Virus record (IMG/VR): IMGVR_UViG_3300043446_003702
Location: 1 to 64,000 of that record
Reading direction: 5' to 3' (one strand)
Length of the DNA: 64,000 nt
Source of the DNA: a virus
Every line of letters starts with the position of its first letter. The stretch's first letter is position 1. The position numbers were made by a program, and so were the translations under genes. Below the pieces are notes generated by a model that did not search any database, had not been told where the DNA came from, and saw only the letters and a list, made by a program, of their open reading frames with translations. This document shows, in pieces, positions 8,325-24,162 of this stretch.

Positions 8325-8657
8325 ATGATGAGAAAGAAACGTACTGATCGAACCCACATTGTGTACATGATCCAGATTGGATTGGAGTACTACATTGGTA
8401 TTACCGCTAAAACTCAGCGCACCATAAACATGTCGCTTCGTAGTCGCATCAACAAACACATCTATCGTAGCCGCACCGAAGACAAGAGCTGGAACCTGTA
8501 CAATGCAATTCGCACGGCAGGCGAAGCCGCTGTTAACTACGCCATCGTGGACACGGTGCGTGGCAAAGATGTTGCACACAAGCTCGAGCGCGAGTTAATA
8601 CGAATGTATGCACCTGCGCTGAACACTGATGTGCGTGTGAAATCGGTTGCCCAATAA
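8325..8657 (+). CDS. GIY-YIG nuclease domain protein
   Basis: IVY..YYIGIT..R..H..LERELI pattern. Confidence 0.7.
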
Positions 8658-8708
8658 TCGCCGTTTTGCTATAATATACACATAGACAGCAACAAATAGG
8701 AGCAAAAA

Positions 8709-12674: not shown

Positions 12675-12842
12675 ATGCAACTGGTTAAATATCGCGATGC
12701 TGAGATGATCACACATACATGGTTCTATGTTGATGATCGCACACGTGCCATGGTCAGTCCGTTTTTTGAGACAGAGCAACAGGCACTGGACTGGTTTGAT
12801 CAAGTGTTTGAAGGTGAAGAAGAAGTAGTTATTGCTGTATGA
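12675..12842 (+). CDS. small hypothetical protein (55 aa)
   Basis: TAAATA, AGGAG SD, open frame to TGA 12840-12842. Confidence 0.55.
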   Translation: MQLVKYRDAEMITHTWFYVDDRTRAMVSPFFETEQQALDWFDQVFEGEEEVVIAV

Positions 12843-13138
12843 AGCCGAGAGAAACGGATTCTGGACGGGGGTGCGAATCCCCCCAGGTCCACCATAAACA
12901 TACTAACCTTTGGGTGTAGTCCGTAAGGATCAAGAGATAACTTCAAAGACCCCATATAACCAAGTTAGTATGTTTTTGATGGGCCTGCATAGTTTCGACA
13001 GGGTCAAAAGTAGCGGAGTGGACAGCACATCAGAGTAGATGTTAAAACTAAAACAACGTAAACGCAAACGACGAACTGTTCGCATTGGCAGCCTAAACAC
13101 TGCCTAGGGTAGGAAATACCTCGTAACAGAAACCACCA
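12835..13138 (+). ncRNA. ssrA: circularly permuted (two-piece) tmRNA, tag ANDELFALAA
   Basis: T arm + CAGGTCC-A-CCA (ends 12894) precedes GGGCCTG (12981); G3.U70 pair; tag ORF 13064-13096; outer ends approximate. Confidence 0.9.
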
Positions 13139-13165
13139 AATAGGCTCCCCGGAGCCTATTTCTTT
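13138..13165 (+). terminator. intrinsic terminator after the tmRNA
   Basis: AAATAGGCTCC-CC-GGAGCCTATTT-CTTT. Confidence 0.85.
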
Positions 13166-13223
13166 GCCCGTTGTTGTCAACGCATTGCCAGGTCAAGGCG
13201 TTGTATATGTACAAGGAGGCTTT

Positions 13224-14786: not shown

Positions 14787-15734
14787 TTGATTGACTGGCC
14801 AGTGGCACCTGCTGACGGCAAATATAGTCGTTGGTACCAGCAACTAATTGATCAGGCAAAATCACGCAAATTGGATAAAGGTGCGTACTTTGAACGTCAT
14901 CACATTGTTCCTCGAAGTTTTGGGGGATCAGATGCCGATGAAAATTTAGTGGATTTGACCGCTCGTGAACACTATATCGCGCATGCCTTGTTGTGGAAAA
15001 TGAAATTTCCTGGTGTTTATGGTAGCAAAATGTCTTTTGCATTTAACACGTTTATCAATAGAATGCGAACTAACAAAGCATTACCTAATATTACATACAA
15101 GATAAACAGTCGCATCTACCAATCATTCAAAGTGCATTATGCTGATATGCTTAGTAAACAGATGTCTGGCCAAGGCAATCATTTTTACGGTAAAACTCAC
15201 AGTGAAGAAACAAAAAAGATCATTGGTGAAAAGAGTAAACTAAAAACTTTTAAACGTGGGCCAGAACATTTTAATTACGGCAAGCCGTCATTTGTTACCC
15301 CTGAGGGCAAACAAAGACAACTGGCTGCAATCAACGCACGGTGGGCCGATCCTGACTTCAAAGAATTAATGCGACAAAAAAGGCGGGCATATAATGCCAC
15401 TCCAGAAGGGCAAGCACAAATAAAAGCCAAAGCTGATGCTCGTCGTGGAGTAAAACGTGATCCAGCAGTGATTGAAAAAATGGCCATGACCAAAAGAGGT
15501 AAAACATGGGAAGAGCTGTATACTCCAGAACAAATTGCTAGAATGCGAGCCGCAATAAAAAACAGAGTATTGTCGCCAGAAGCCAAGGCAAAAATGTGGT
15601 TTAAAGGAAAAGGAAAAGGAATTGCCAAAATAAAACATGCATGTCCACATTGTGGCAAATTGTGTGCTGGCAACATGTTGGCCAAATGGCATGGTGATAA
15701 CTGTAAATTCAAATTTCCACCCCAAAATCATTGA
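14787..15734 (+). mobile_element. free-standing HNH homing endonuclease with NUMOD3 repeats
   Basis: ERHHIVPRSFGG..NLVDLTAREHYIAH; NHFYGKTHSEETKKII; C-terminal CPHC. Confidence 0.85.
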
Positions 15735-15759
15735 CTTTCAACTCACTGTCATATATAAT
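15731..15759 (+). promoter_or_regulatory. sigma70 promoter of leader 1
   Basis: TTGACT-N17-TATAAT; ATG at about +1. Confidence 0.8.
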
Positions 15760-15764
15760 AAACT

Positions 15765-15863
15765 ATGATTACGCAATTCGCCCAACTGTCCTTTGAGATA
15801 CCCTCACATGATTATCGTGAGGCGCTGGCCTATACCTTATTCAGCGGGAGCGGTGGTACCTAA
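15765..15863 (+). CDS. putative attenuator leader peptide 1 (MITQFAQLSFEIPSHDYREALAYTLFSGSGGT)
   Basis: leaderless 32-codon ORF between promoter and terminator; absent from the ORF track. Confidence 0.7.
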   Translation: MITQFAQLSFEIPSHDYREALAYTLFSGSGGT

Positions 15864-15883
15864 TACCTAAGTACTACTCAAGC

Positions 15884-15916
15884 AAAAACCCGCTACACAG
15901 GCGGGTTTTTCTTTTT
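15884..15916 (+). terminator. intrinsic terminator / attenuator 1
   Basis: AAAAACCCGC-TACACAG-GCGGGTTTTT-CTTTTT. Confidence 0.85.
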
Positions 15917-17402: not shown

Positions 17403-17936
17403 ATGATAGCGATTGATACTTACACTCAACCAATGACAGGCTTTGAAGACACATGCCATGCTCATTTGACGACATTTTTAACCAGCGACGGTGATGAAAA
17501 TTTGTACAATTTTTTCAAAGATTGTGTAAATCAAAATTTGATTAAAAATTTATTTCTTTGGGTACCTTATGAACTGCCTGTGATGTTAAATTGGGGGCTT
17601 ATTCGATACTATTCAGACGATTTGTCAACTGCCACCCTGGTCAAAGAAAAATTTGAGGACATGAACGCGAATTTTTCTGTAAAAAAGTTTTGGAATCAAA
17701 TGAATTTTGAATTCGCCTGTGTTGATCCCAAAGAAATCGTGTTCGATGAGGAGCCGTCAGATTCTTTTTTTCCAGTGATTGACCTAGATGGTAATGGTAT
17801 ATGGGCTTTTGACTTCCCTGTAGTTGATGATCTGACACTGCAAGGATGGCAGCCAGCCATGGAATCTCGACGGTCTTTTTTCCAAAATCTTTCCAATCAA
17901 AAAAACAAATATTTTGCAAATTATTTTGAAAAATAA
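17403..17936 (+). CDS. hypothetical protein (AT-rich)
   Basis: GGAG SD after tRNA-fMet, ATG 17403. Confidence 0.6.
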   Translation: MIAIDTYTQPMTGFEDTCHAHLTTFLTSDGDENLYNFFKDCVNQNLIKNLFLWVPYELPVMLNWGLIRYYSDDLSTATLVKEKFEDMNANFSVKKFWNQMNFEFACVDPKEIVFDEEPSDSFFPVIDLDGNGIWAFDFPVVDDLTLQGWQPAMESRRSFFQNLSNQKNKYFANYFEK

Positions 17937-17961
17937 TTTTGAAGCAAAAATTTCTGATAGG

Positions 17962-17990
17962 TTGACAACAAATGATAAATACACTATAAT
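17962..17990 (+). promoter_or_regulatory. consensus sigma70 promoter of leader 2
   Basis: TTGACA-N17-TATAAT; ATG at about +1. Confidence 0.9.
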
Positions 17991-17997
17991 AGGAACT

Positions 17998-18108
17998 ATG
18001 ATGAAACAACAATTCTGTTCAATGCTCAAGCCCATGACAACCCAGACATCGTTCTGGGTGTTGGCCAATGGCTCAGCAAACAGCATTCCAGGAGACCCGG
18101 GGTTCTGA
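17998..18108 (+). CDS. putative attenuator leader peptide 2 (MMKQQFCSMLKPMTTQTSFWVLANGSANSIPGDPGF)
   Basis: leaderless 36-codon ORF between promoter and terminator. Confidence 0.75.
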   Translation: MMKQQFCSMLKPMTTQTSFWVLANGSANSIPGDPGF

Positions 18109-18134
18109 TTAGACTATATTCGTATACCTAACAT

Positions 18135-18170
18135 GAACCCTGGAACTAAACACTCCAGGGTTTTTCATTT
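18135..18170 (+). terminator. intrinsic terminator / attenuator 2
   Basis: GAACCCTGGA-N9-TCCAGGGTTT-TTCATTT. Confidence 0.85.
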
Positions 18171-18367
18171 AGTGCAACGGCAACGCGAGCCGGTATCACT
18201 CTAAACTACAAATGTGGGCGGCCTCGAGGATGAGAAGACTGTGGCGACAACGCAGTTGGTAAAAGTCGAGCGTATTAAAGCAGATTATGTCAGTGAGGAG
18301 GCACCAAGTTGTGTGCAACGATAGTCTGCTTTAATACACACACTGGTCTCAGTGTGTCAAAATGCAT

Positions 18368-18441
18368 TCCGGTGTAGTATAATGGCAGTGCGGTGGTCTC
18401 CAAAACCACTAGTGGGAGTTCGATTCTCTCCACCGGAGCCA
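18368..18441 (+). tRNA. tRNA-Trp (CCA)
   Basis: loop CTCCAAA, CCA end. Confidence 0.9.
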
Positions 18442-18449
18442 TGAAATTT

Positions 18450-18524
18450 GGGCTGTTAGTGATAATGGGAGCACGAGGCCTTTGCACGGCTTAGGTGGGA
18501 GTTCGATTCTCCCACGGTCCACCA
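18450..18524 (+). tRNA. tRNA-Ala (TGC)
   Basis: G3.U70, loop TTTGCAC. Confidence 0.9.
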
Positions 18525-18546
18525 AACATGATATAAGTATTCACAA

Positions 18547-18636
18547 GGAACGTGGGCCGGATGGTAAGGCACGGGATTGCTAATCCCGCGGTGGTGACGA
18601 GCCGCTGATAGGGTTCGACTCCCTAACGTTCCGCCA
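18547..18636 (+). tRNA. tRNA-Ser (GCT)
   Basis: loop TTGCTAA, long variable arm. Confidence 0.9.
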
Positions 18637-18643
18637 AAGACAT

Positions 18644-18719
18644 TCCTCAGTAGCACAGCGGTAGTTGCACTTGACTGTTAATCAAGGTGTCGGTGGTTCG
18701 ATCCCACCCTGAGGAGCCA
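18644..18719 (+). tRNA. tRNA-Asn (GTT)
   Basis: loop CTGTTAA. Confidence 0.9.
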
Positions 18720-18736
18720 AACACAAAGGAAATACA

Positions 18737-18904
18737 ATGTCTAACACATTTAGAACTACAAACGATCCAATGAAACATCACAGTGGCAAGCCCAGACTGG
18801 GCCCACTGAACGTAGCACAATTGACCAAGATGTTGGAAAGTGCAAGACCAAAAAATCGTGCCAAGATTCAACGTGCAATAGACGCTAGACTCAAAAAGTC
18901 CTAA
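18737..18904 (+). CDS. small basic hypothetical protein (55 aa)
   Basis: AAGGA SD, open frame between tRNAs; absent from the ORF track. Confidence 0.6.
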   Translation: MSNTFRTTNDPMKHHSGKPRLGPLNVAQLTKMLESARPKNRAKIQRAIDARLKKS

Positions 18905-18912
18905 GCACTCAC

Positions 18913-18986
18913 GCCCTATTAGTATAATGGTATTACACCGGTTTTGTAATCCGGGTACGGCAGTTCGATTCTGTCATGGGGCACCA
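18913..18986 (+). tRNA. tRNA-Thr (TGT)
   Basis: loop TTTGTAA. Confidence 0.9.
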
Positions 18987-19039
18987 ATTTTTTTACAAAG
19001 GAGTTCTGTCATGAACAGTGACAAGAGTGGCAAACCTAT

Positions 19040-19114
19040 GGGGGTATAACTTAACGGCTAAAGTAGTGGGCTTTTAACCCATTAATCAGAGTTCGATTCT
19101 CTGTGCCCCTACCA
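19040..19114 (+). tRNA. tRNA-Lys (TTT)
   Basis: loop CTTTTAA. Confidence 0.9.
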
Positions 19115-19190
19115 TATAAAAACACATTTATGATCAGACTGGTACTCCGGCGCCGGGGGGAGACCGCCTCCACTGAGTGTGTTTCTATAT

Positions 19191-19265
19191 GGTAATGTAG
19201 CATAATGGCAGTGCACCACCTTCATACGGTGTCCAGTGAAAGTTCGACTCTTTCCATTACCGCCA
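19191..19265 (+). tRNA. elongator tRNA-Met (CAT)
   Basis: loop TTCATAC, fully paired acceptor. Confidence 0.8.
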
Positions 19266-19275
19266 AAGGAGATTT

Positions 19276-19992
19276 ATGAAAAAGGCAATTATCTTGGGTT
19301 GCAGTCATGCGCTGGGTGCAGAAATGCACAAACAACCAGGTTGGACATTGCAACCAGAATATGACAATGTTGATGCCTATGGCGCCATGAATAGTTATCC
19401 AGTGCTGTTGGCACAAGCCTTGGGCTATACACCATACAATCATGCTATATCTGGTGGCAGCAATGATGCCATGTATCGAATTTTCTGTGATCAGCTGCCA
19501 CAACTCACTGCCAGTGACATTGTGATTGCCTGCTGGACTGGAGGCAACAGAAGTGAAGTATTTTATGAATCCGAGCAGAGATGGTTGCCTATCAGTCACG
19601 GTGACACTCACACGCTTCGAATTCAATCAGACACAGTGTTACAGCAAGGCAGATCTATTCCAGAAAAAATCGCACATGCTGAGCCATTTGAACAATTTGG
19701 TCGACAGTGGTTGATATACGAAGGGCATGATCAGCGCGGTCGACTAAACAAGACAAAAAATATTTTGGCTCTGAACATGTTGGCACAGGCACACCATATA
19801 CCTGTGATCAACATTGACAGTTTTTGGCCAGTTATCGACTACGTATGGCCATCGGCTCTAAGTTGGCCTGTGTCACAAGAGTTTGTGCAGTTCTGTCAAG
19901 AACACAATTTTCCGCACACTGATTGGGGACATTATTTTCTCCCTGCTCATCAAGCATTTGCAAATTACATTTTAAAAAACATAGCCGGATAG
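19276..19992 (+). CDS. SGNH/GDSL-like hydrolase family protein
   Basis: LGCSHA, NHAISGGSN, GHYF..AH; 3' end overlaps tRNA-Ile. Confidence 0.6.
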   Translation: MKKAIILGCSHALGAEMHKQPGWTLQPEYDNVDAYGAMNSYPVLLAQALGYTPYNHAISGGSNDAMYRIFCDQLPQLTASDIVIACWTGGNRSEVFYESEQRWLPISHGDTHTLRIQSDTVLQQGRSIPEKIAHAEPFEQFGRQWLIYEGHDQRGRLNKTKNILALNMLAQAHHIPVINIDSFWPVIDYVWPSALSWPVSQEFVQFCQEHNFPHTDWGHYFLPAHQAFANYILKNIAG

Positions 19993-20056
19993 TTAAATGG
20001 TATAACGGTCGCTTGATAAGCGATTATCGCAAGTTCAATTCTTGCTCTGGCTACCA
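19983..20056 (+). tRNA. tRNA-Ile (GAT)
   Basis: loop TTGATAA. Confidence 0.9.
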
Positions 20057-20061
20057 GTCAT

Positions 20062-20136
20062 TGGGGGTTCGCCAAGTGGTAAGGCCTCGGATTTTGATTC
20101 CGACATGCATAGGTTCGAATCCTATACCCCCTGCCA
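20062..20136 (+). tRNA. tRNA-Gln (TTG)
   Basis: loop TTTTGAT, weak 1:72 pair. Confidence 0.9.
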
Positions 20137-20143
20137 AATTCCG

Positions 20144-20172
20144 TAGACATGTAGTGATACATGTTGTATAAT
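20144..20172 (+). promoter_or_regulatory. internal sigma70-like promoter before tRNA-Gly
   Basis: TAGACA-N17-TATAAT overlapping the ACATGTA-GTGA-TACATGT inverted repeat. Confidence 0.6.
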
Positions 20173-20181
20173 TACAGTATT

Positions 20182-20259
20182 GCGGGTAGACAGGTGATGG
20201 GGCCACCAGCAGCCTTCCAAGCTGAAGATCGCGGAGTTCGACTCTCCCTACCCGCTCCA
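20182..20259 (+). tRNA. tRNA-Gly (TCC), 8/4 fold
   Basis: loop CTTCCAA, U73; 8-bp acceptor and 4-bp T stem. Confidence 0.75.
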
Positions 20260-20278
20260 CTCTTTAGAAAGAACTGAC

Positions 20279-20497
20279 ATGGGGATTGAAAGTGCCGCAA
20301 CGTTTTTGATTTGTACAATTTTACTGGGCTCGGGTGCCACAGTGATTGTGGGTGTGATACTGTTGATCAACAACATGTTGCATCGTTACTGGAAAAACCT
20401 GCATTGGAACTTGCCAGAAAGTCTCAGAGCCATGCGTGATCCTTACCCATATCAGACTGTGGATCGCAGTCAAGAACCTCCTTTGGACCGGAAGTAA
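20279..20497 (+). CDS. small membrane protein
   Basis: hydrophobic N-terminal half; followed by hairpin 20486-20506. Confidence 0.55.
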   Translation: MGIESAATFLICTILLGSGATVIVGVILLINNMLHRYWKNLHWNLPESLRAMRDPYPYQTVDRSQEPPLDRK

Positions 20498-20518
20498 CTT
20501 CCGGTCTATCCTTTTTAT

Positions 20519-20597
20519 CCGAGTGTAGGAAAGTCTGGTTTAATCCGTCTGCTTTGGGAGCAGAAGATCGGGAGTTCGAATCTCTCTACTCGGACCA
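20519..20597 (+). tRNA. tRNA-Pro (TGG)
   Basis: loop TTTGGGA. Confidence 0.9.
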
Positions 20598-20602
20598 AAC
20601 AT

Positions 20603-20680
20603 GCAACGGTGGCGGAGTGGCCCAACGCATGGGATTGCAAATCCCAAAAACCGTCAGTTCGAATCTGACCCGTTGCTCCA
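20603..20680 (+). tRNA. tRNA-Cys (GCA)
   Basis: loop TTGCAAA, U73. Confidence 0.9.
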
Positions 20681-20704
20681 GAAATCAAGAAAAAATAAAG
20701 AACT

Positions 20705-21364
20705 ATGAAACTTTTAAACAACGTCTTAAGTGCGAAACAAATTGAATTATTCAAACAATACTGGGACAATAATCCCGATCAACGCTATGTAAATTGGAGA
20801 ATTGGTGATGAAGTATTAGATTATAGGTTAGAAGTCATGCATGACCCTGTGTTATGGAAAATTATCACTGATATAGTAAGTCAAGATTTTTCATCTACTG
20901 TACAAATTTGGAGTGCATTACAAAGTCAAAAATTTGCACATCACATTCATGTTGATGATTATGGTGTAGAAAAATATCCCGATATTCCAATGTACACTTA
21001 TATTTTTGCACTAGATACTGTGCCAGAATTTAAGACTATTGTGTGGAGGGAAGTTGTGAAAAGCAATGCAGACATACCAAACTATTTAAAACTTTGGAAT
21101 TTGAAGCGACACAAGTTGCCAAAAACTTCAACTATTAGCACTGAGCAAGATCTTGAACACACATATGATGAAAACGCACAGGCCTATTTGTGTGATTATT
21201 TAACATTGGATGATATTTTTGAGTATCAGGCCGGAAGTGGTGTACTGTTTAATGGTCGACAATTGCATTGTACCAGTAACTGGTTAAAATATAAAAAATT
21301 TGAAAGTCGAGAATTGTTACAAATACATGTCGTATCTCATGATTTGAAAACGTTATTGACGTAA
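20705..21364 (+). CDS. possible 2OG-Fe(II) oxygenase-like protein
   Basis: HIHVD..GVLFNGRQLHCT..R. Confidence 0.45.
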   Translation: MKLLNNVLSAKQIELFKQYWDNNPDQRYVNWRIGDEVLDYRLEVMHDPVLWKIITDIVSQDFSSTVQIWSALQSQKFAHHIHVDDYGVEKYPDIPMYTYIFALDTVPEFKTIVWREVVKSNADIPNYLKLWNLKRHKLPKTSTISTEQDLEHTYDENAQAYLCDYLTLDDIFEYQAGSGVLFNGRQLHCTSNWLKYKKFESRELLQIHVVSHDLKTLLT

Positions 21365-22527
21365 GGCTCAATAAGTTCGTAGAATTCTGGAAACGTATCT
21401 TCAAAACTCTGTCCTCGCAGTTTATCAAGGTCCTTGGTATGTTGCCAAAACTTAGGCCAGTAGGTATCGCATCCTGGCACTGTTTGCATTATAAAATTTG
21501 CAACACTGGGGTTGCGATTGGCAATAATCTTTCGCACTGATAACGGGATATGTCGTATATCATATTCCCCTGGCGAGGTCACTAAATTTAAGTTAGTTGA
21601 CAATCTATGCTTTGTTAAGTTAGTTCTAATTTTTGTTATGTCAAACACATTTATTGGACTAACTGTAATATTAATAGCCAAGTTAATGTTGGGATATTGT
21701 TGATGTATTTGTTTGAATTTTTCTAAGTTGTCAAACAACAAGTCAGCTTTGACTGGATATCTAATATATTCTAATTCTTTAATTTGATCACTATCAATGC
21801 TTAATCCAATTTGCACTGATTTAAATTTTGAAAGTATTTCTAAATATTTTGAATTAAATATTGTAATATTAGTATGTAACTGTAATGCAGTATTTTGAGA
21901 TTGTCCTGCGGCAGCAACACGTTCTAGTGCATTAAACAGCGCAGGATTCAAAAAAGGTTCGCCGCCGTAAATGTCAACATACACCATGTTGGGCAACCAT
22001 TCAACAAATGTGTCCCAAAATTCTATGTTGTCTTGATTGAAACTGTTGCGTATGTGCTCAAACGTTTGAGAATATTCAGTAGCGGTGCCAACAAAGCCTT
22101 CGTTTTTTACCGCTAGTTGGTAGGCATCTTTGTACCATCCACTACTAGTCGCTGGATTACACATACGGCATGCAAGATTACAAGTATTTCCAGGTTTAAT
22201 GATAAAAACTTGTGGTTGAGTTGTTAAATTTGGCAATGCGCCAAATTTATTGTTAAATTGTTTTCTTGGACTATTGCTGTTAGATTGTTCTAAATCAAAG
22301 CAATGACTACAGGCTGGTAGTTCTCGATCTCTATCAAGAGCGGCTGCAACCATTCGTCGTGTATGGCTATTCCATGCATCCTTGAGACTGGTGCTGTGTG
22401 CATACATAACTTCTCGAGTTTTGGTTTCAAAACTCATGTTGTTGATATTACAAACACAAAAATCGCCGTTGTTTTGTATTGCCAATGCTTTGTGCGGCAT
22501 CACGCAGTGAGTTTTTGATTGGTCCAT
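21337..22527 (-). CDS. radical SAM protein with N-terminal Cys-rich (SPASM/Twitch-like) region
   Basis: CNLACRMC and GGEPF motifs. Confidence 0.85.
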   Translation of the reverse strand: MDQSKTHCVMPHKALAIQNNGDFCVCNINNMSFETKTREVMYAHSTSLKDAWNSHTRRMVAAALDRDRELPACSHCFDLEQSNSNSPRKQFNNKFGALPNLTTQPQVFIIKPGNTCNLACRMCNPATSSGWYKDAYQLAVKNEGFVGTATEYSQTFEHIRNSFNQDNIEFWDTFVEWLPNMVYVDIYGGEPFLNPALFNALERVAAAGQSQNTALQLHTNITIFNSKYLEILSKFKSVQIGLSIDSDQIKELEYIRYPVKADLLFDNLEKFKQIHQQYPNINLAINITVSPINVFDITKIRTNLTKHRLSTNLNLVTSPGEYDIRHIPLSVRKIIANRNPSVANFIMQTVPGCDTYWPKFWQHTKDLDKLRGQSFEDTFPEFYELIEPYVNNVFKS

Positions 22528-22565
22528 GTGGACTGATATTTATATATGGAATTTTGATTTAAAAT

Positions 22566-22657
22566 GGAAGATGATGCAGGTGCGATGGTGCGCCGACTGG
22601 CCTTGAAAACCAGGTTCCGAGAAATCGGATGGGGTTCGACTCCTCCGTCTTCCGCCA
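22566..22657 (+). tRNA. tRNA-Ser (TGA), 8/4 tRNA-Sec-like fold
   Basis: loop CTTGAAA, 8-bp acceptor, 6-bp D stem, long variable arm, G73. Confidence 0.8.
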
Positions 22658-22681
22658 AATAAGTACATAGAGGAGATAAAA

Positions 22682-22843
22682 ATGAAGCCAATCCAGTTTG
22701 AAAACAAAATTACTCGAGAAAGATTCATTTGCGATGACATCAGATTCCGGCGAGTGTTTGAAGGTGTTGAGTATATCTCTGTGCATCGACCCAATGAAAC
22801 TCGTCAATTGCTCATGCGCCTAGATGCATTACAACAAATTTAA
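22682..22843 (+). CDS. small hypothetical protein (53 aa)
   Basis: GAGGAG SD; absent from the ORF track. Confidence 0.6.
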   Translation: MKPIQFENKITRERFICDDIRFRRVFEGVEYISVHRPNETRQLLMRLDALQQI

Positions 22844-22845
22844 AA

Positions 22846-22919
22846 GCCTCGTTCGTCTAATGGTAGGGCCGCGCTTTTACACAGCGCAGACGGCAGTTCG
22901 ATTCTGTCACGAGGTACCA
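22846..22919 (+). tRNA. tRNA-Val (TAC)
   Basis: loop TTTACAC. Confidence 0.9.
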
Positions 22920-22995
22920 GCCACTATAGCAAAGATGGTCTATGCACCGGACTGAAAATCCGAGGATCCTGGTTCGATACCCGGTGGTGGCACCA
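22920..22995 (+). tRNA. tRNA-Phe (GAA)
   Basis: loop CTGAAAA; abuts tRNA-Val. Confidence 0.9.
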
Positions 22996-23191
22996 AACTA
23001 CAATCCAATGCAAAATCTTTTTTCGGTGGCTTAACATCAGGTACAAACTCAGGTTTTTTACTTTGATACAGAAGATTCACCAGGAAACCACGATCTGTGG
23101 TCCAGTAGGCCGCAGGCACGTATGGCTGATGTGAAAAGTTTTGATACAAAACTTCAACTCGTAATTCATTGGATTGCATAATGTATTTACT

Positions 23192-23269
23192 GCCCCCATG
23201 GACAAATTGGCAAAGTCGCTTCTCTCAAAAGGAAGAGCATTCTCTGTTCGAATCAGAGTGGGGGTACCA
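23192..23269 (+). tRNA. tRNA-Leu (CAA), short variable arm
   Basis: loop CTCAAAA, A73. Confidence 0.85.
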
Positions 23270-23277
23270 AGTATCAA

Positions 23278-23354
23278 GCCCTGGTGGCGCAATTGGTAGA
23301 CGCACCACTTTGAGGGGGTGTAAAGTGTGAGTTCGAATCTCACCCAGGGCACCA
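23278..23354 (+). tRNA. tRNA-Leu (GAG), short variable arm
   Basis: loop TTGAGGG, A73. Confidence 0.85.
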
Positions 23355-23359
23355 CTCTA

Positions 23360-23437
23360 CTCTGTATGGCGCAGCCTGGTCAGCGCACTGGTCTGGGGGA
23401 CCAGGGGTCGCAAGTTCAAATCTTGCTACAGAGACCA
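23360..23437 (+). tRNA. tRNA-Pro (GGG)
   Basis: loop CTGGGGG. Confidence 0.9.
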
Positions 23438-23459
23438 ATGATAACTAAAGAAAGCACTT

Positions 23460-23930
23460 ATGAAAAAACTAGATCTAGCACAAGTCACAGAATTCATCCA
23501 GGCTCAGACGCCTGAAACACGCATCTACCTGGGCTGTGATTCAGAACGCATCAGAATAGACGGACGCTGGTATGCTGACTATGTGCTGGCCATTGTAGTA
23601 CACATCAATGGCAACAACGGTTGTCGAATCTTTGGCGAAGTGCAACGCGAACCTGTGTGGGATCAAAAAGTCAACAAGCCTGCCATGCGTCTCATGACCG
23701 AAGTGTACAAGGTGTCAGAACTGTACTTGCAGTTGGCTGATGTGCTGGAAGATAGACTGGTGGAAGTTCACTTGGACATCAACCCCGACGAACACTATGG
23801 TTCAAGTTGTGTGGTCAGTCAAGCCATAGGCTACATCAAAGGCACATGTAATGTCATACCTTTCGTGAAACCACACGCCTTTGCCGCAAGTTACGCTGCT
23901 GATAGATTCAAAGGCTTGCAGGCGGCATAG
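23460..23930 (+). CDS. RNase H-like YkuK/DUF458 family protein
   Basis: IYLGCDS, RLMTEV, EVHLDIN, KPHAFAASYAAD motifs. Confidence 0.75.
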   Translation: MKKLDLAQVTEFIQAQTPETRIYLGCDSERIRIDGRWYADYVLAIVVHINGNNGCRIFGEVQREPVWDQKVNKPAMRLMTEVYKVSELYLQLADVLEDRLVEVHLDINPDEHYGSSCVVSQAIGYIKGTCNVIPFVKPHAFAASYAADRFKGLQAA

Positions 23931-23936
23931 AATATT

Positions 23937-24010
23937 GCGGGATTAGTTTAATGGCAAAACGGAACCTTGCCAAGGTTCATACACCAGTTCGATTCTGGTA
24001 TTCCGCTCCA
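23937..24010 (+). tRNA. tRNA-Gly (GCC)
   Basis: loop TTGCCAA, U73. Confidence 0.9.
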
Positions 24011-24013
24011 ATT

Positions 24014-24087
24014 GCTCTTGTAGTTAAGTGGCATAACGGCTCCATGGTAAGGAGCAGTCGACAGTTCGATTCTGTACTTGAGCACCA
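24014..24087 (+). tRNA. tRNA-Thr (GGT)
   Basis: loop ATGGTAA; mismatches in the acceptor stem. Confidence 0.8.
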
Positions 24088-24162
24088 CGGCCTTTAGTTC
24101 AATGGATAGAATACCGGGCTTCGAACCCGGGGGTGGCGGTTCGATCCCGTCAGGGCCGGCCA
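24088..24162 (+). tRNA. tRNA-Arg (TCG)
   Basis: loop CTTCGAA. Confidence 0.9.

Follow-up and report, generated by a model that had tools for sequence, protein, structure and literature searches.

A putative ribosome-mediated attenuator ahead of a tRNA array in an uncultured giant freshwater phage

The role of tRNA genes in phages has been debated for fifty years, with codon compensation set against the replacement of cleaved or decaying host tRNAs, and to our knowledge almost nothing is known of how such genes are controlled. The locus described here, from an uncultured giant freshwater phage (the window, 64,000 nucleotides, is positions 1 to 64,000 of IMG/VR record IMGVR_UViG_3300043446_003702), has a promoter, a short open reading frame (ORF) and an intrinsic terminator in front of a long series of tRNA genes. 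Three studies treat large phage tRNA sets as counter-defense or host-independence modules that may substitute for host tRNAs cleaved or depleted in infection (PMC10264068, PMC11555353, PMC12409363); their topic is tRNA function, to which the element analyzed here would add the missing regulatory input. A sequence-only reading had proposed that the tRNAs are transcribed when decoding of the ORF slows. Ribosome-masked folding and co-variation among relatives both favor this proposal, and we consider it probable that the element is a ribosome-mediated transcription attenuator that makes synthesis of the tRNAs depend on how fast codons are decoded.

Promoter, leader ORF and two exclusive hairpins

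The promoter is of the sigma-70 type and spans 17962-17990, with the -35 hexamer at 17962-17967, a 17-nt spacer and the -10 hexamer at 17985-17990 (+ strand, as are the other parts of the element and the tRNA genes discussed below). The perfect TTGACA-N17-TATAAT promoter of the sequence-only reading was borne out: the site agrees with the consensus at 12 of 12 positions and ranks top among 36 promoter-like sites in 16 kb, and its hexamers and spacing are retained in all relatives despite differing sequence upstream. The leader ORF (17998-18108) is composed of 36 codons and a TGA stop codon. Since its ATG is positioned 7 nt past the -10 hexamer, the leader mRNA is probably leaderless; the ATG lies 5-9 nt past this hexamer in six of eight families. 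The ORF itself was described correctly; its leaderless start is deduced from the ATG-to-hexamer distance only.

One scan for relatives, by the spacer motif, was loose and returned about 90 loci, mostly by chance, from which the true relatives were selected by blastn. The leader ORF is open, of equal length and without indels in 43 of 43 distinct relatives, in all of which the position of the stop codon (TGA or TAA) is constant, and the homologues in clade B have 35, 36 or 37 codons, always in frame. A sister leader in the window (leader 1, 15765-15863) shows five in-frame indels across 11 relatives. This preservation of frame argues that the leader ORF is translated. Changes at conserved residues are nearly all synonymous (AAG/AAA, AGC/AGT, CTG/TTG, CCG/CCA), and 11 positions in clade A are hypervariable yet confined to amino acids of the array. 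Neither the array-2 leader peptide nor that of sister leader 1 matched a Pfam family. Mean column identity over the leader region is 90% in 43 sequences, with diverging flanks; the invariance of the first 20 nt of the ORF among metagenome relatives is by construction, because the search pattern fixed them.

The intrinsic terminator proposed at 18135-18170 was confirmed, with a 10-bp stem, a 9-nt loop, a U tract and a stem energy of -15.0 kcal/mol; a simple scan had missed it because the loop limit of the scan was 8. In the 43 sequences 99.5% of its cells are paired, and one pair covaries (CG in 21, UA in 21). A pairing of 18097-18105 with 18135-18143 that excludes the terminator had also been proposed, and it was recovered as part of a longer, 19-bp antiterminator hairpin (18097-18143). 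The 5' arm of this hairpin (18097-18112) is formed by codons 34-36, the stop codon and four further bases, and the final part of its 3' arm is the first 9 nt of the terminator 5' arm (18135-18143), making the two folds mutually exclusive. When the full transcript was folded with RNAfold, the antiterminator was part of the minimum-free-energy structure (-18.7 kcal/mol versus -15.0 for the terminator) and took up 0.90 of the ensemble. In the 43 sequences 97% of its cells are paired. Direct covariation support is thin, consisting essentially of one UA-to-CG double change, which both the L010/L032 lineage and clade B show, and of pair 102-144, which is GC, GU or AU with one mismatch. A second antiterminator strand (18086-18092 with 18139-18145) was considered and dropped, as position 18141 covaries with the terminator 3' arm; its would-be partner is invariant, so that this pairing would be mismatched in half of the relatives.

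The masked folding that had been proposed as a check was run with a 30-nt ribosome footprint. When the leader carries no ribosome, or one placed at codons 11-29, the antiterminator is for the most part the dominant fold, the equilibrium exceptions being codons 16 and 23, which favor the terminator; with the A site at codon 30 or beyond, the terminator probability is 1.0. The fold flips in silico once the A site reaches codon 30; the sequence-only reading had carried the caveat that ribosomes stalled at about codons 29-36 would themselves mask the antiterminator strand. The model predicts that the position of the ribosome on the leader sets which helix forms. No upstream partner was predicted for 18097-18112, such as segment 1 provides in attenuators of the trp/his type, and the layout is a simpler two-state one, attenuator-like in its predicted working, rather than a four-segment one (1:2, 2:3, 3:4). 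In 14 of 14 leaders tested from other families, folded with the transcript ended before the terminator 3' arm, the final 3-12 codons of the ORF are the pairing partner of the terminator 5' arm.

A further hairpin, P1 (18042-18057), lies within the ORF at codons 15-20 and has a 5-bp stem, extended by a sixth pair in some relatives. Its fifth pair covaries (GC in 23, AU in 15, GU in 3, UA in 2) and is unpaired in none; P1 might possibly serve as a pause hairpin for RNA polymerase. Nucleotide conservation and this covarying hairpin prompted the idea that the leader is a purely non-coding structured RNA, which was rejected on the grounds of in-frame length variation, the synonymous pattern and the presence of unrelated ORFs at the same site.

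Leader codons and the tRNA genes behind the terminator

Nineteen tRNAs in 18368-24162 were confirmed with ARAGORN and Rfam. Two further ones match only the tRNA-Sec model, below threshold (Gly-UCC at 20182-20255, 29.7 bits; Ser-UGA at 22566-22653, 38 bits), with Gly-TCC and Ser-TGA called by ARAGORN at the corresponding places in relatives. The array of 21 tRNAs that had been read from the sequence holds in this sense, but not as one clear operon, as four features interrupt it. Between the leader and the distal tRNAs are a promoter at 20144, a strong terminator (20484-20508) directly preceding tRNA-Pro, and a minus-strand radical-SAM/SPASM gene (21337-22527), and the region also holds further + strand protein genes. 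The internal promoter at 20144 and a hairpin at 20486 had been foreseen as features that may uncouple the distal tRNAs; both are present, together with the minus-strand gene. Only the first nine tRNAs (Trp, Ala, Ser-GCT, Asn, Thr-TGT, Lys, Met, Ile and Gln; 18368-20136, ARAGORN and Rfam) are plainly behind terminator 18135-18170. A cognate leader codon is present for 9 of 9 of these proximal tRNAs and for 11 of the 12 distal ones (20144-24162), and in the relative G001 the same distal tRNAs form a far more compact run.

The terminator is joined to tRNA-Trp by a conserved structured spacer RNA of ~200 nt (18168-18367; z-score -3.2), in which several helices show compensatory changes across 36 relatives and which occurs only once in the window. 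No promoter-like site matching at least 9 of 12 positions was found in 18171-18353, between terminator and tRNA-Trp, and clades A and B likewise have none there. A search of 17900-18400 against Rfam gave no match at the gathering threshold, and only chance matches at E up to 10.

With plain wobble rules the leader covers 20 of the 21 downstream tRNAs, Arg-TCG alone being without a cognate codon, and 35/36 of its codons specify amino acids of array 2, reproducing both counts of the sequence-only reading; 34/36 are read by an array-2 tRNA, the exceptions being GAC and GCC. Coverage in 50,000 36-codon windows drawn from the phage's own long ORFs is 13.1 +/- 1.7 of the 21 tRNAs with a maximum of 19, and none of these windows reaches 20. 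When synonymous codons were drawn anew for an unchanged peptide, the codon match had P = 0.008, and all 28 core codons specify array-2 amino acids (28/28, P = 0.002). Leaders of relatives cover 21/24 tRNAs in G001 (P = 0.0016), 16/18 in G004 (P = 0.0085) and 17/21 in G002 (P = 0.017). Codons for Glu, His, Tyr and Arg are absent from the leader of the window, as had been claimed, but the absence of Glu is not conserved, since Glu occupies codon 33, outside the sensing zone, in 23 of the 43 leaders.

Co-variation of leaders and arrays among relatives

The comparison of leader codon sets with array content that had been suggested as a test speaks in favor of the attenuator reading. Clade A has no Tyr, His, Glu, Asp or Arg-ACG tRNA downstream, and its 43 distinct leaders contain no Tyr, His or Arg codon and have Glu or Asp only at codon 33. 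In clade B, where tRNA-Tyr, -His and -Arg(ACG) are now among the downstream tRNAs, TAT, CAC/CAT and CGC codons are present in the homologous leader, and the motif WLLANGS has become WSHAYGR. The leader of L148, in this same clade, contains all amino acids but Asp and Glu in front of an array with all isotypes but Asp and Glu, and the leader of L135 is without Cys and His, as is the array seen behind it. Arg-TCG is sampled by no leader, most clade-A leaders lack Val, and a cross table of clade-A leaders against arrays showed no pair-specific fit, so that the idea of clade-A leaders fitted pair by pair to their own arrays was dropped.

Unrelated leaders of 36-47 codons are found in families D, E and F, each with all 20 amino acids and each in front of a complete or nearly complete array (null probabilities 1.8e-3, 5.6e-3 and 2.4e-2, respectively). 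Phage G008 has two arrays and two leaders, and the amino acids are shared out between the leaders in the same way as between the arrays. Within the first 20 codons of leader beta, all 10 amino acids of array beta occur and no others, and 27/30 core codons and 11/11 types of leader alpha belong to array alpha. Altogether, at least seven mutually unalignable families of leader peptide occupy the same position with the same terminator overlap. In families D and E and in G008 alpha the terminator is followed by a consensus promoter ahead of the spacer or array, so that in these cases the attenuator could do no more than supplement a basal supply. The sister leader 1 of the window has a weak antiterminator and no overall enrichment for array-1 amino acids, and its clade B homologue keeps His, Trp, Cys and Arg codons with only Glu and Asp tRNAs directly behind.

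Proposed mechanism, alternatives and known systems

RNA polymerase starting at or beside the ATG would make it possible for a ribosome to load on the 5' end at once and to trail the polymerase, with the two presumably coupled kinetically. At full decoding speed the ribosome would be on codons 30-36 or the stop codon while the polymerase makes 18135-18170; it would there cover the 5' strand of the antiterminator, the terminator would fold and transcription would end. If the ribosome lagged in codons 1-29, or had never loaded, the stronger antiterminator (18097-18143) would form first and take up the terminator 5' arm, and the polymerase would continue via the spacer RNA into the tRNA genes. Because the sensing codons are those for the amino acids of the downstream tRNAs, nearly all of which are covered, the delay would report the supply of exactly the decoders that the array encodes, providing negative feedback on phage tRNA output. 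That an anticodon nuclease or starvation is the trigger is speculation.

Close parallels are the multivalent leader-peptide attenuators of the enterobacterial trp, his, thr and ilvGMEDA operons. There, as proposed here, a short leader ORF (translated in those operons, and probably in the phage) is followed by a terminator and an antiterminator that share a strand, the position of the ribosome decides which hairpin forms, and the regulatory codons match what the operon supplies. Those operons encode biosynthetic enzymes rather than tRNAs, and their leaders have runs of one to three kinds of amino acid, whereas 15-20 kinds are sampled here, once or a few times each. The phage mRNA is, in addition, probably leaderless, and there is no sequence relation. 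Unlike trp, in which an untranslated leader terminates, the untranslated phage leader is predicted by folding to read through, because no segment 1 pairs with the antiterminator strand. T-box riboswitches (Rfam RF00230) are also leader RNAs in which a choice between terminator and antiterminator reports tRNA status and controls translation-related genes, but their recognition of a single uncharged tRNA is by direct binding and involves no translation; in the phage element what is conserved is an open reading frame, and the T-box covariance model did not match 17900-18400 even at E up to 10. Another close system is the uORF attenuator of whiB7 (wblC) in mycobacteria, in which a stall anywhere in the uORF leads to antitermination, the coding sequence sets the response to particular amino-acid, tRNA and synthetase shortages, and the sequence varies among species with its composition kept (PMC10274678). 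These three features resemble those proposed for the phage element, which differs in that its output is the decoders themselves rather than a transcription factor (for drug tolerance and alanine supply) and in that its composition mirrors the downstream tRNAs rather than being enriched for one amino acid; the phage element has no homology to it.

The breadth of codons could also mean that the leader reports only whether ribosomes keep pace with RNA polymerase. As a general sensor of translation activity or infection stage, it would answer to any slowdown, including host shut-off, ribosome-targeting toxins and global starvation, much as knock-down of many amino-acid, tRNA and synthetase genes switches on the whiB7 uORF attenuator (PMC10274678). 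Folding in silico is compatible with this, as the untranslated leader forms the antiterminator and would be read through on any loss of translation, and both the all-20 leaders in front of complete arrays, which would be non-specific by design, and the missing leader-specific fit in clade A can be read in the same way. A general sensor need not avoid any amino acid, though, and yet Tyr, His and Arg are absent from all 43 clade-A leaders, in which Glu and Asp are confined to codon 33, clade B gains precisely the three amino acids whose tRNAs moved downstream, and the division of amino acids between the two G008 leaders follows that between their arrays. We consider a general sensor unlikely on this account.

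Two other explanations would dispense with decoding as the signal. The cassette might be an independent gene for a functional 36-residue peptide, driven by its own promoter and followed by an ordinary terminator that leaks, in which case the hairpin would stabilize the RNA or aid termination, and tRNA synthesis would depend on constitutive readthrough or on promoters elsewhere. That conserved residue blocks change mostly synonymously would fit such a gene, the promoter behind the terminator in families D and E and in G008 alpha implies that the cassette can stand alone, and terminator 20484-20508, in front of tRNA-Pro and without any leader logic, indicates that leaky terminators occur in tRNA regions here. 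These blocks are, however, mostly paired RNA, and in the L010/L032 lineage and clade B the C-terminal residues change while compensation keeps the helix. The 11 hypervariable positions stay among the array's amino acids, the unalignable peptide families share position and terminator overlap, and no Pfam family was matched; co-variation with tRNA gene content would not be predicted, and we judge this explanation quite improbable. The terminated leader transcript of ~170 nt might instead be a trans-acting small RNA, possibly besides attenuation, as suggested by the strong promoter and terminator, the 90% column identity bounded by diverging flanks, and RNA-library contigs over 17962-18187 and 17992-18105; the attenuator-derived rnTrpL of Sinorhizobium supplies a precedent (PMC6614838). 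This has very little probability in our estimate, as the transcript has no known target, the leaders of other families at this place are unrelated in sequence, the in-frame length changes and synonymous pattern indicate that the reading frame is what is kept, and the codon match would be left unexplained.

If the attenuator reading is correct, the phage measures decoding speed and responds with tRNA supply, attenuation integrates 15-20 different codons instead of one to three, and tRNA sub-arrays are regulatory groupings. A wider proposal, to which we give somewhat less than even credence, is a modular tRNA homeostat, in which each tRNA sub-array of a giant phage would be headed by a leaderless 'test' ORF written in its own codons and switched on only when its decoders run short (for instance through host anticodon nucleases, tRNA-degrading defenses or host tRNA decay), with the 36-codon leader of a complete array, holding all 20 amino acids, acting as a whole-pool sensor. 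Such a homeostat would be the first known sensor-actuator loop for viral translation genes and the first attenuator to read many tRNAs at once. The promoter, ORF and switch would also make a compact natural part of about 210 nt that converts the availability of chosen tRNAs into transcriptional output. The idea is unusually testable for an element known from metagenomes only, owing to a threefold comparative signal: Tyr, His and Arg codons appear in the leader where their tRNAs have moved downstream, all-20 leaders precede complete arrays, and paired leaders split the amino acids.

Attenuator-like leaders may precede the E. coli tRNA-Phe genes, and small ORFs may lie in the T5 tRNA region. A full-text search covering phages, E. 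coli pheU/pheV and T5 gave no description of attenuation of tRNA genes or operons, and a full-text search for a sensor or attenuator upstream of phage tRNA genes likewise found none described. Among 50,697 phage records searched by blastn for cultured relatives, only tRNA-Met was matched, in Agrobacterium phage Atu_ph07 and one uncultured phage; the matching region of Atu_ph07 has just two tRNAs and no cassette, and no tractable isolate with the cassette was found among these records. The 177-residue protein encoded upstream retrieved no relatives from viral contigs and one homologue from Logan, on a contig that ends within the leader. Relatives are also found in four metatranscriptome runs, as assembled contigs from which starts, ends and levels are not readable and in which DNA carry-over is possible; one contig runs across the terminator (18082-18255), one covers 17962-18187 and one 17992-18105. 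One RNA-library contig joins 18010 to 18179.

A predicted attenuator upstream of array 2

The window covers the first 64 kb of an IMG/VR virus record of 148 kb whose completeness is estimated at 43%, implying a phage of about 350 kb, and it encodes one tmRNA and 29 tRNAs (ARAGORN), the tRNAs falling into three groups. The plus-strand cassette that precedes array 2 begins with a sigma-70 promoter (17962-17990), the sole 12/12 consensus match within 16 kb, followed by a 36-codon leader ORF (17998-18108) whose ATG lies 7 bases past the -10 hexamer. A long hairpin (18097-18143; RNAfold -18.7 kcal/mol) is positioned to act as an antiterminator, and it is followed by an intrinsic terminator (18135-18170; -15.0 kcal/mol), a 200-nt spacer and tRNA-Trp, the first tRNA past the spacer, which starts at 18368. 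Nucleotides 18135-18143 are common to the hairpin and the terminator, so the two structures are mutually exclusive; the hairpin is present in the minimum-free-energy fold of the whole transcript (z-score -2.7). Coordinates and folding energies thus bear out the anatomy of promoter, ORF, hairpin, terminator and tRNAs described in the sequence-only reading. The ATG is found 5-9 nt past the -10 hexamer in six of eight leader families, and from this position the mRNA is probably leaderless.

The effect of translation was modeled by making a 30-nt ribosome footprint unpairable and shifting it codon by codon. With no ribosome on the transcript the antiterminator forms with a probability of 0.90, and it remains mostly dominant while the A site occupies codons 11-29. 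Once the A site reaches codon 30 the fold flips, and the terminator has a probability of 1.0 from there to the stop codon. The stop codon is 27 nt from the terminator stem, a distance at which a terminating ribosome would mask the antiterminator strand and spare the terminator. The folding model therefore predicts that an untranslated leader reads through the terminator, unlike the trp and his attenuators.

RNA-library contigs cover the leader and one spans the terminator, though such contigs are uninformative on transcript ends or levels. One metatranscriptome contig (run X6) joins 18010 to 18179, omitting 168 nt, the bulk of the leader plus the terminator; either a relative lacking the cassette or a misassembly could account for it. 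A 177-residue ORF (17403-17936) occupies the interval from tRNA-Met to the leader promoter, and a search of 5.8 billion clusters yielded one homologue of it (64% identity); the ORF has no counterpart in the relative contigs L007 and L009, where the promoter lies within ~50 nt of tRNA-Met.

Conservation of the reading frame and the RNA structures

A first relative was located among Logan contigs via the protein encoded upstream of the leader, and comparison with it showed that the promoter and ORF start are far better preserved than that protein. Exact-word scans then yielded 8 viral contigs and 50 metagenome contigs, mostly from lakes, which contain 43 distinct versions of the element (clade A); the metagenome search pattern specified ORF nucleotides 1-20, which makes their invariance in those matches meaningless. 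All 43 frames are open, span 36 codons and end at the same position with TGA or TAA, with zero indels; one indel occurs one base past the stop, and indels are abundant in the spacer. Eleven leader positions are hypervariable, while differences at conserved residues are almost all synonymous (AAG/AAA, AGC/AGT, CTG/TTG, CCG/CCA).

Hairpin P1, within codons 15-20, contains one fully covarying pair (GC 23, AU 15, GU 3 and UA 2), and one terminator pair is CG in 21 clade-A sequences and UA in 21. The antiterminator is 97% paired; there is one UA-to-CG double change, and another pair varies among GC, GU and AU with one mismatch. The near-invariance of the sequence within clade A leaves direct covariation thin here. 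In the diverged homologues of clade B, both the apical and the lower stems have changed in sequence with pairing retained. The C-terminal residues change from PGF to SGS, RGS or TGS with the helix preserved, which argues that the RNA and not the peptide is constrained at that end. When transcripts were cut before the 3' arm of the terminator and folded, the 5' arm paired with the last 3-12 ORF codons in all 14 leaders, drawn from several families.

Leader codons and the tRNAs that follow

Using plain wobble rules we reproduced the cognate leader codons for 20 of the 21 downstream tRNAs, the tRNA never sampled being Arg-TCG. In 36-codon windows taken from long ORFs of this phage the coverage is 13.1 +/- 1.7 tRNAs, and none of 50,000 reaches 20. 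Redrawing synonymous codons from phage usage with the peptide held fixed gave P = 0.008, indicating that the leader samples both isoacceptors for each of Leu, Pro, Thr, Gly and Ser more than expected. All 28 core codons (2-29) specify array-2 amino acids (P = 0.002), and the window leader has a single codon for Asp, Glu, His and Tyr combined (P = 0.005). Codons for Tyr, His or Arg are found nowhere in the 43 clade-A leaders, and Glu or Asp is confined to codon 33, already within the masking zone.

Diverged homologues, and unrelated leaders before the same spacer RNA, were collected with a spacer-motif scan and a blastn filter, and their amino acids track array content across clades and families, the co-variation that the sequence-only reading had proposed to test. 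In clade B (L083/84/148, L111, L143 and L077), where the downstream array includes tRNA-Tyr, -His and -Arg(ACG), WLLANGS is replaced by WSHAYGR, with TAT, CAC/CAT and CGC codons. The L148 leader uses all amino acids except Asp and Glu, the isotypes missing from its array, and the L135 leader has neither Cys nor His, both absent from the visible part of its array. Three unrelated families precede complete or nearly complete arrays, namely D (four diverged members, 36-38 codons), E (40 codons) and F (47 codons), and their leaders hold all 20 amino acids; the null probabilities are 1.8e-3 for 36 residues, 5.6e-3 for 40 and 2.4e-2 for 47. The relative G008 carries two leaders and two arrays, the same duality as in the window. 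The first 20 codons of its beta leader specify only the 10 amino-acid types of the beta array and use all 10, and in its alpha leader 27 of the 30 core codons specify amino acids of the alpha array, all 11 types of which occur; each fits the other's array poorly (8/25 and 5/30). Within clade A, by contrast, a leader matches the arrays of other members no less well than its own.

The sister cassette in the window (15731-15916; promoter, 32-codon ORF and terminator) precedes the Glu/Tyr/Asp/Arg/His array 1. Its ORF (15765-15863) opens 5 nt past the -10 hexamer and presents His-Asp-Tyr-Arg-Glu in five consecutive codons, matching the five elongator tRNAs that follow (0 of 100,000 null windows match). 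The frame survives five in-frame indels in relatives (+3, +9, +12, -3). Its antiterminator is weak, with 5-6 GC pairs, and the clade-B homologue of this leader, whose array has only Glu and Asp, retains codons for His, Trp, Cys and Arg.

In every structural respect testable here the array-2 element resembles a leader-peptide attenuator, and it is predicted to work like one. The original observation is confirmed, and mask folding, codon match and co-variation lend its interpretation in silico support; we consider it likely that the element is a ribosome-mediated attenuator of tRNA genes, with the mechanism as predicted computationally. Weighing against this reading are the interruptions of array 2, the promoter past the terminator in some relatives, the equal fit of clade-A leaders to one another's arrays, the unsampled Arg-TCG, and the weak antiterminator of the sister leader together with the codons kept by its clade-B homologue. 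It is neither a four-segment attenuator of the trp/his type nor a T-box. The nearest functional analogue is the whiB7 upstream ORF, in which a stall anywhere leads to antitermination and the composition of the ORF determines which shortages are sensed (PMC10274678). Within ribosome-mediated attenuation the element would be distinct in its target, tRNA genes, in sampling 15-20 codon types and in its probably leaderless start. Full-text literature searches found no attenuator or leader peptide linked to phage tRNA genes and no account of attenuation of tRNA genes generally; phage-tRNA counter-defence papers, by their abstracts, treat tRNA function (PMC10264068, PMC11555353, PMC12409363).

The spacer RNA and the organization of the arrays

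Between the terminator and tRNA-Trp lies a conserved, closed multi-helix RNA of ~200 nt (18168-18367), in which at least four helices show compensatory changes among 36 relatives and a central insert is variable. No Rfam family matches this RNA, of which the window has a single copy; it may act as a pre-tRNA leader or be a stable RNA comparable to species 1 and 2 of T4. Its distribution is wider than that of the array-2 leader, and it heads tRNA arrays behind several unrelated leader families. The spacer RNA begins right past its own promoter in families D and E; these families and G008 alpha have a consensus promoter downstream of the terminator, so attenuation there would only modulate expression above a basal level. 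In the clade-B phages L143 (~8600-8670, minus strand) and L077 (~1060-1130), a Shine-Dalgarno sequence and an ORF of 15 codons, many of them for Glu, Tyr, Trp, His and Asp, lie between the terminator and the spacer RNA and are followed by a 7-bp hairpin; this may be a second small sensing ORF.

The count of 21 tRNAs in array 2 stands with a qualification, since Gly-UCC (20182-20255) and Ser-UGA (22566-22653) are atypical: in the window they match only the tRNA-Sec model, below threshold (29.7 and 38 bits), and are called by neither ARAGORN nor the general Rfam tRNA model. ARAGORN calls Gly-TCC and Ser-TGA at matching places in relatives. The tRNAs past 20136 are separated from the leader by a second promoter at 20144, a strong terminator at 20484-20508 and a gene on the minus strand (21337-22527). 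The stem of this terminator is 11 bp; the terminator coincides in part with the end of a membrane-like ORF of 72 residues and stops 11 nt short of tRNA-Pro, and neither tRNA-Pro nor tRNA-Cys has its own promoter. The antisense gene encodes a 396-residue radical-SAM/SPASM protein, is missing from the corresponding gap in the relative G001 and has the look of an insertion dividing the array. G001 carries the same tRNAs in a compact run, and the leader therefore seems matched to the ancestral array.

One array-1 slot is occupied by an unusual tRNA that differs from phage to phage (window 16631-16713; L004 1637-1715; L009 11429-11505). ARAGORN calls it Ile-AAT in the window, where Rfam does not find it; in G001 the anticodon is CTA, predicted to decode amber, and in L009 it is Leu-TAG. 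The tmRNA (12794-13187) is permuted, as in betaproteobacteria, and carries the tag ANDELFALAA, variants of which occur in relatives; it hints at a betaproteobacterial host.
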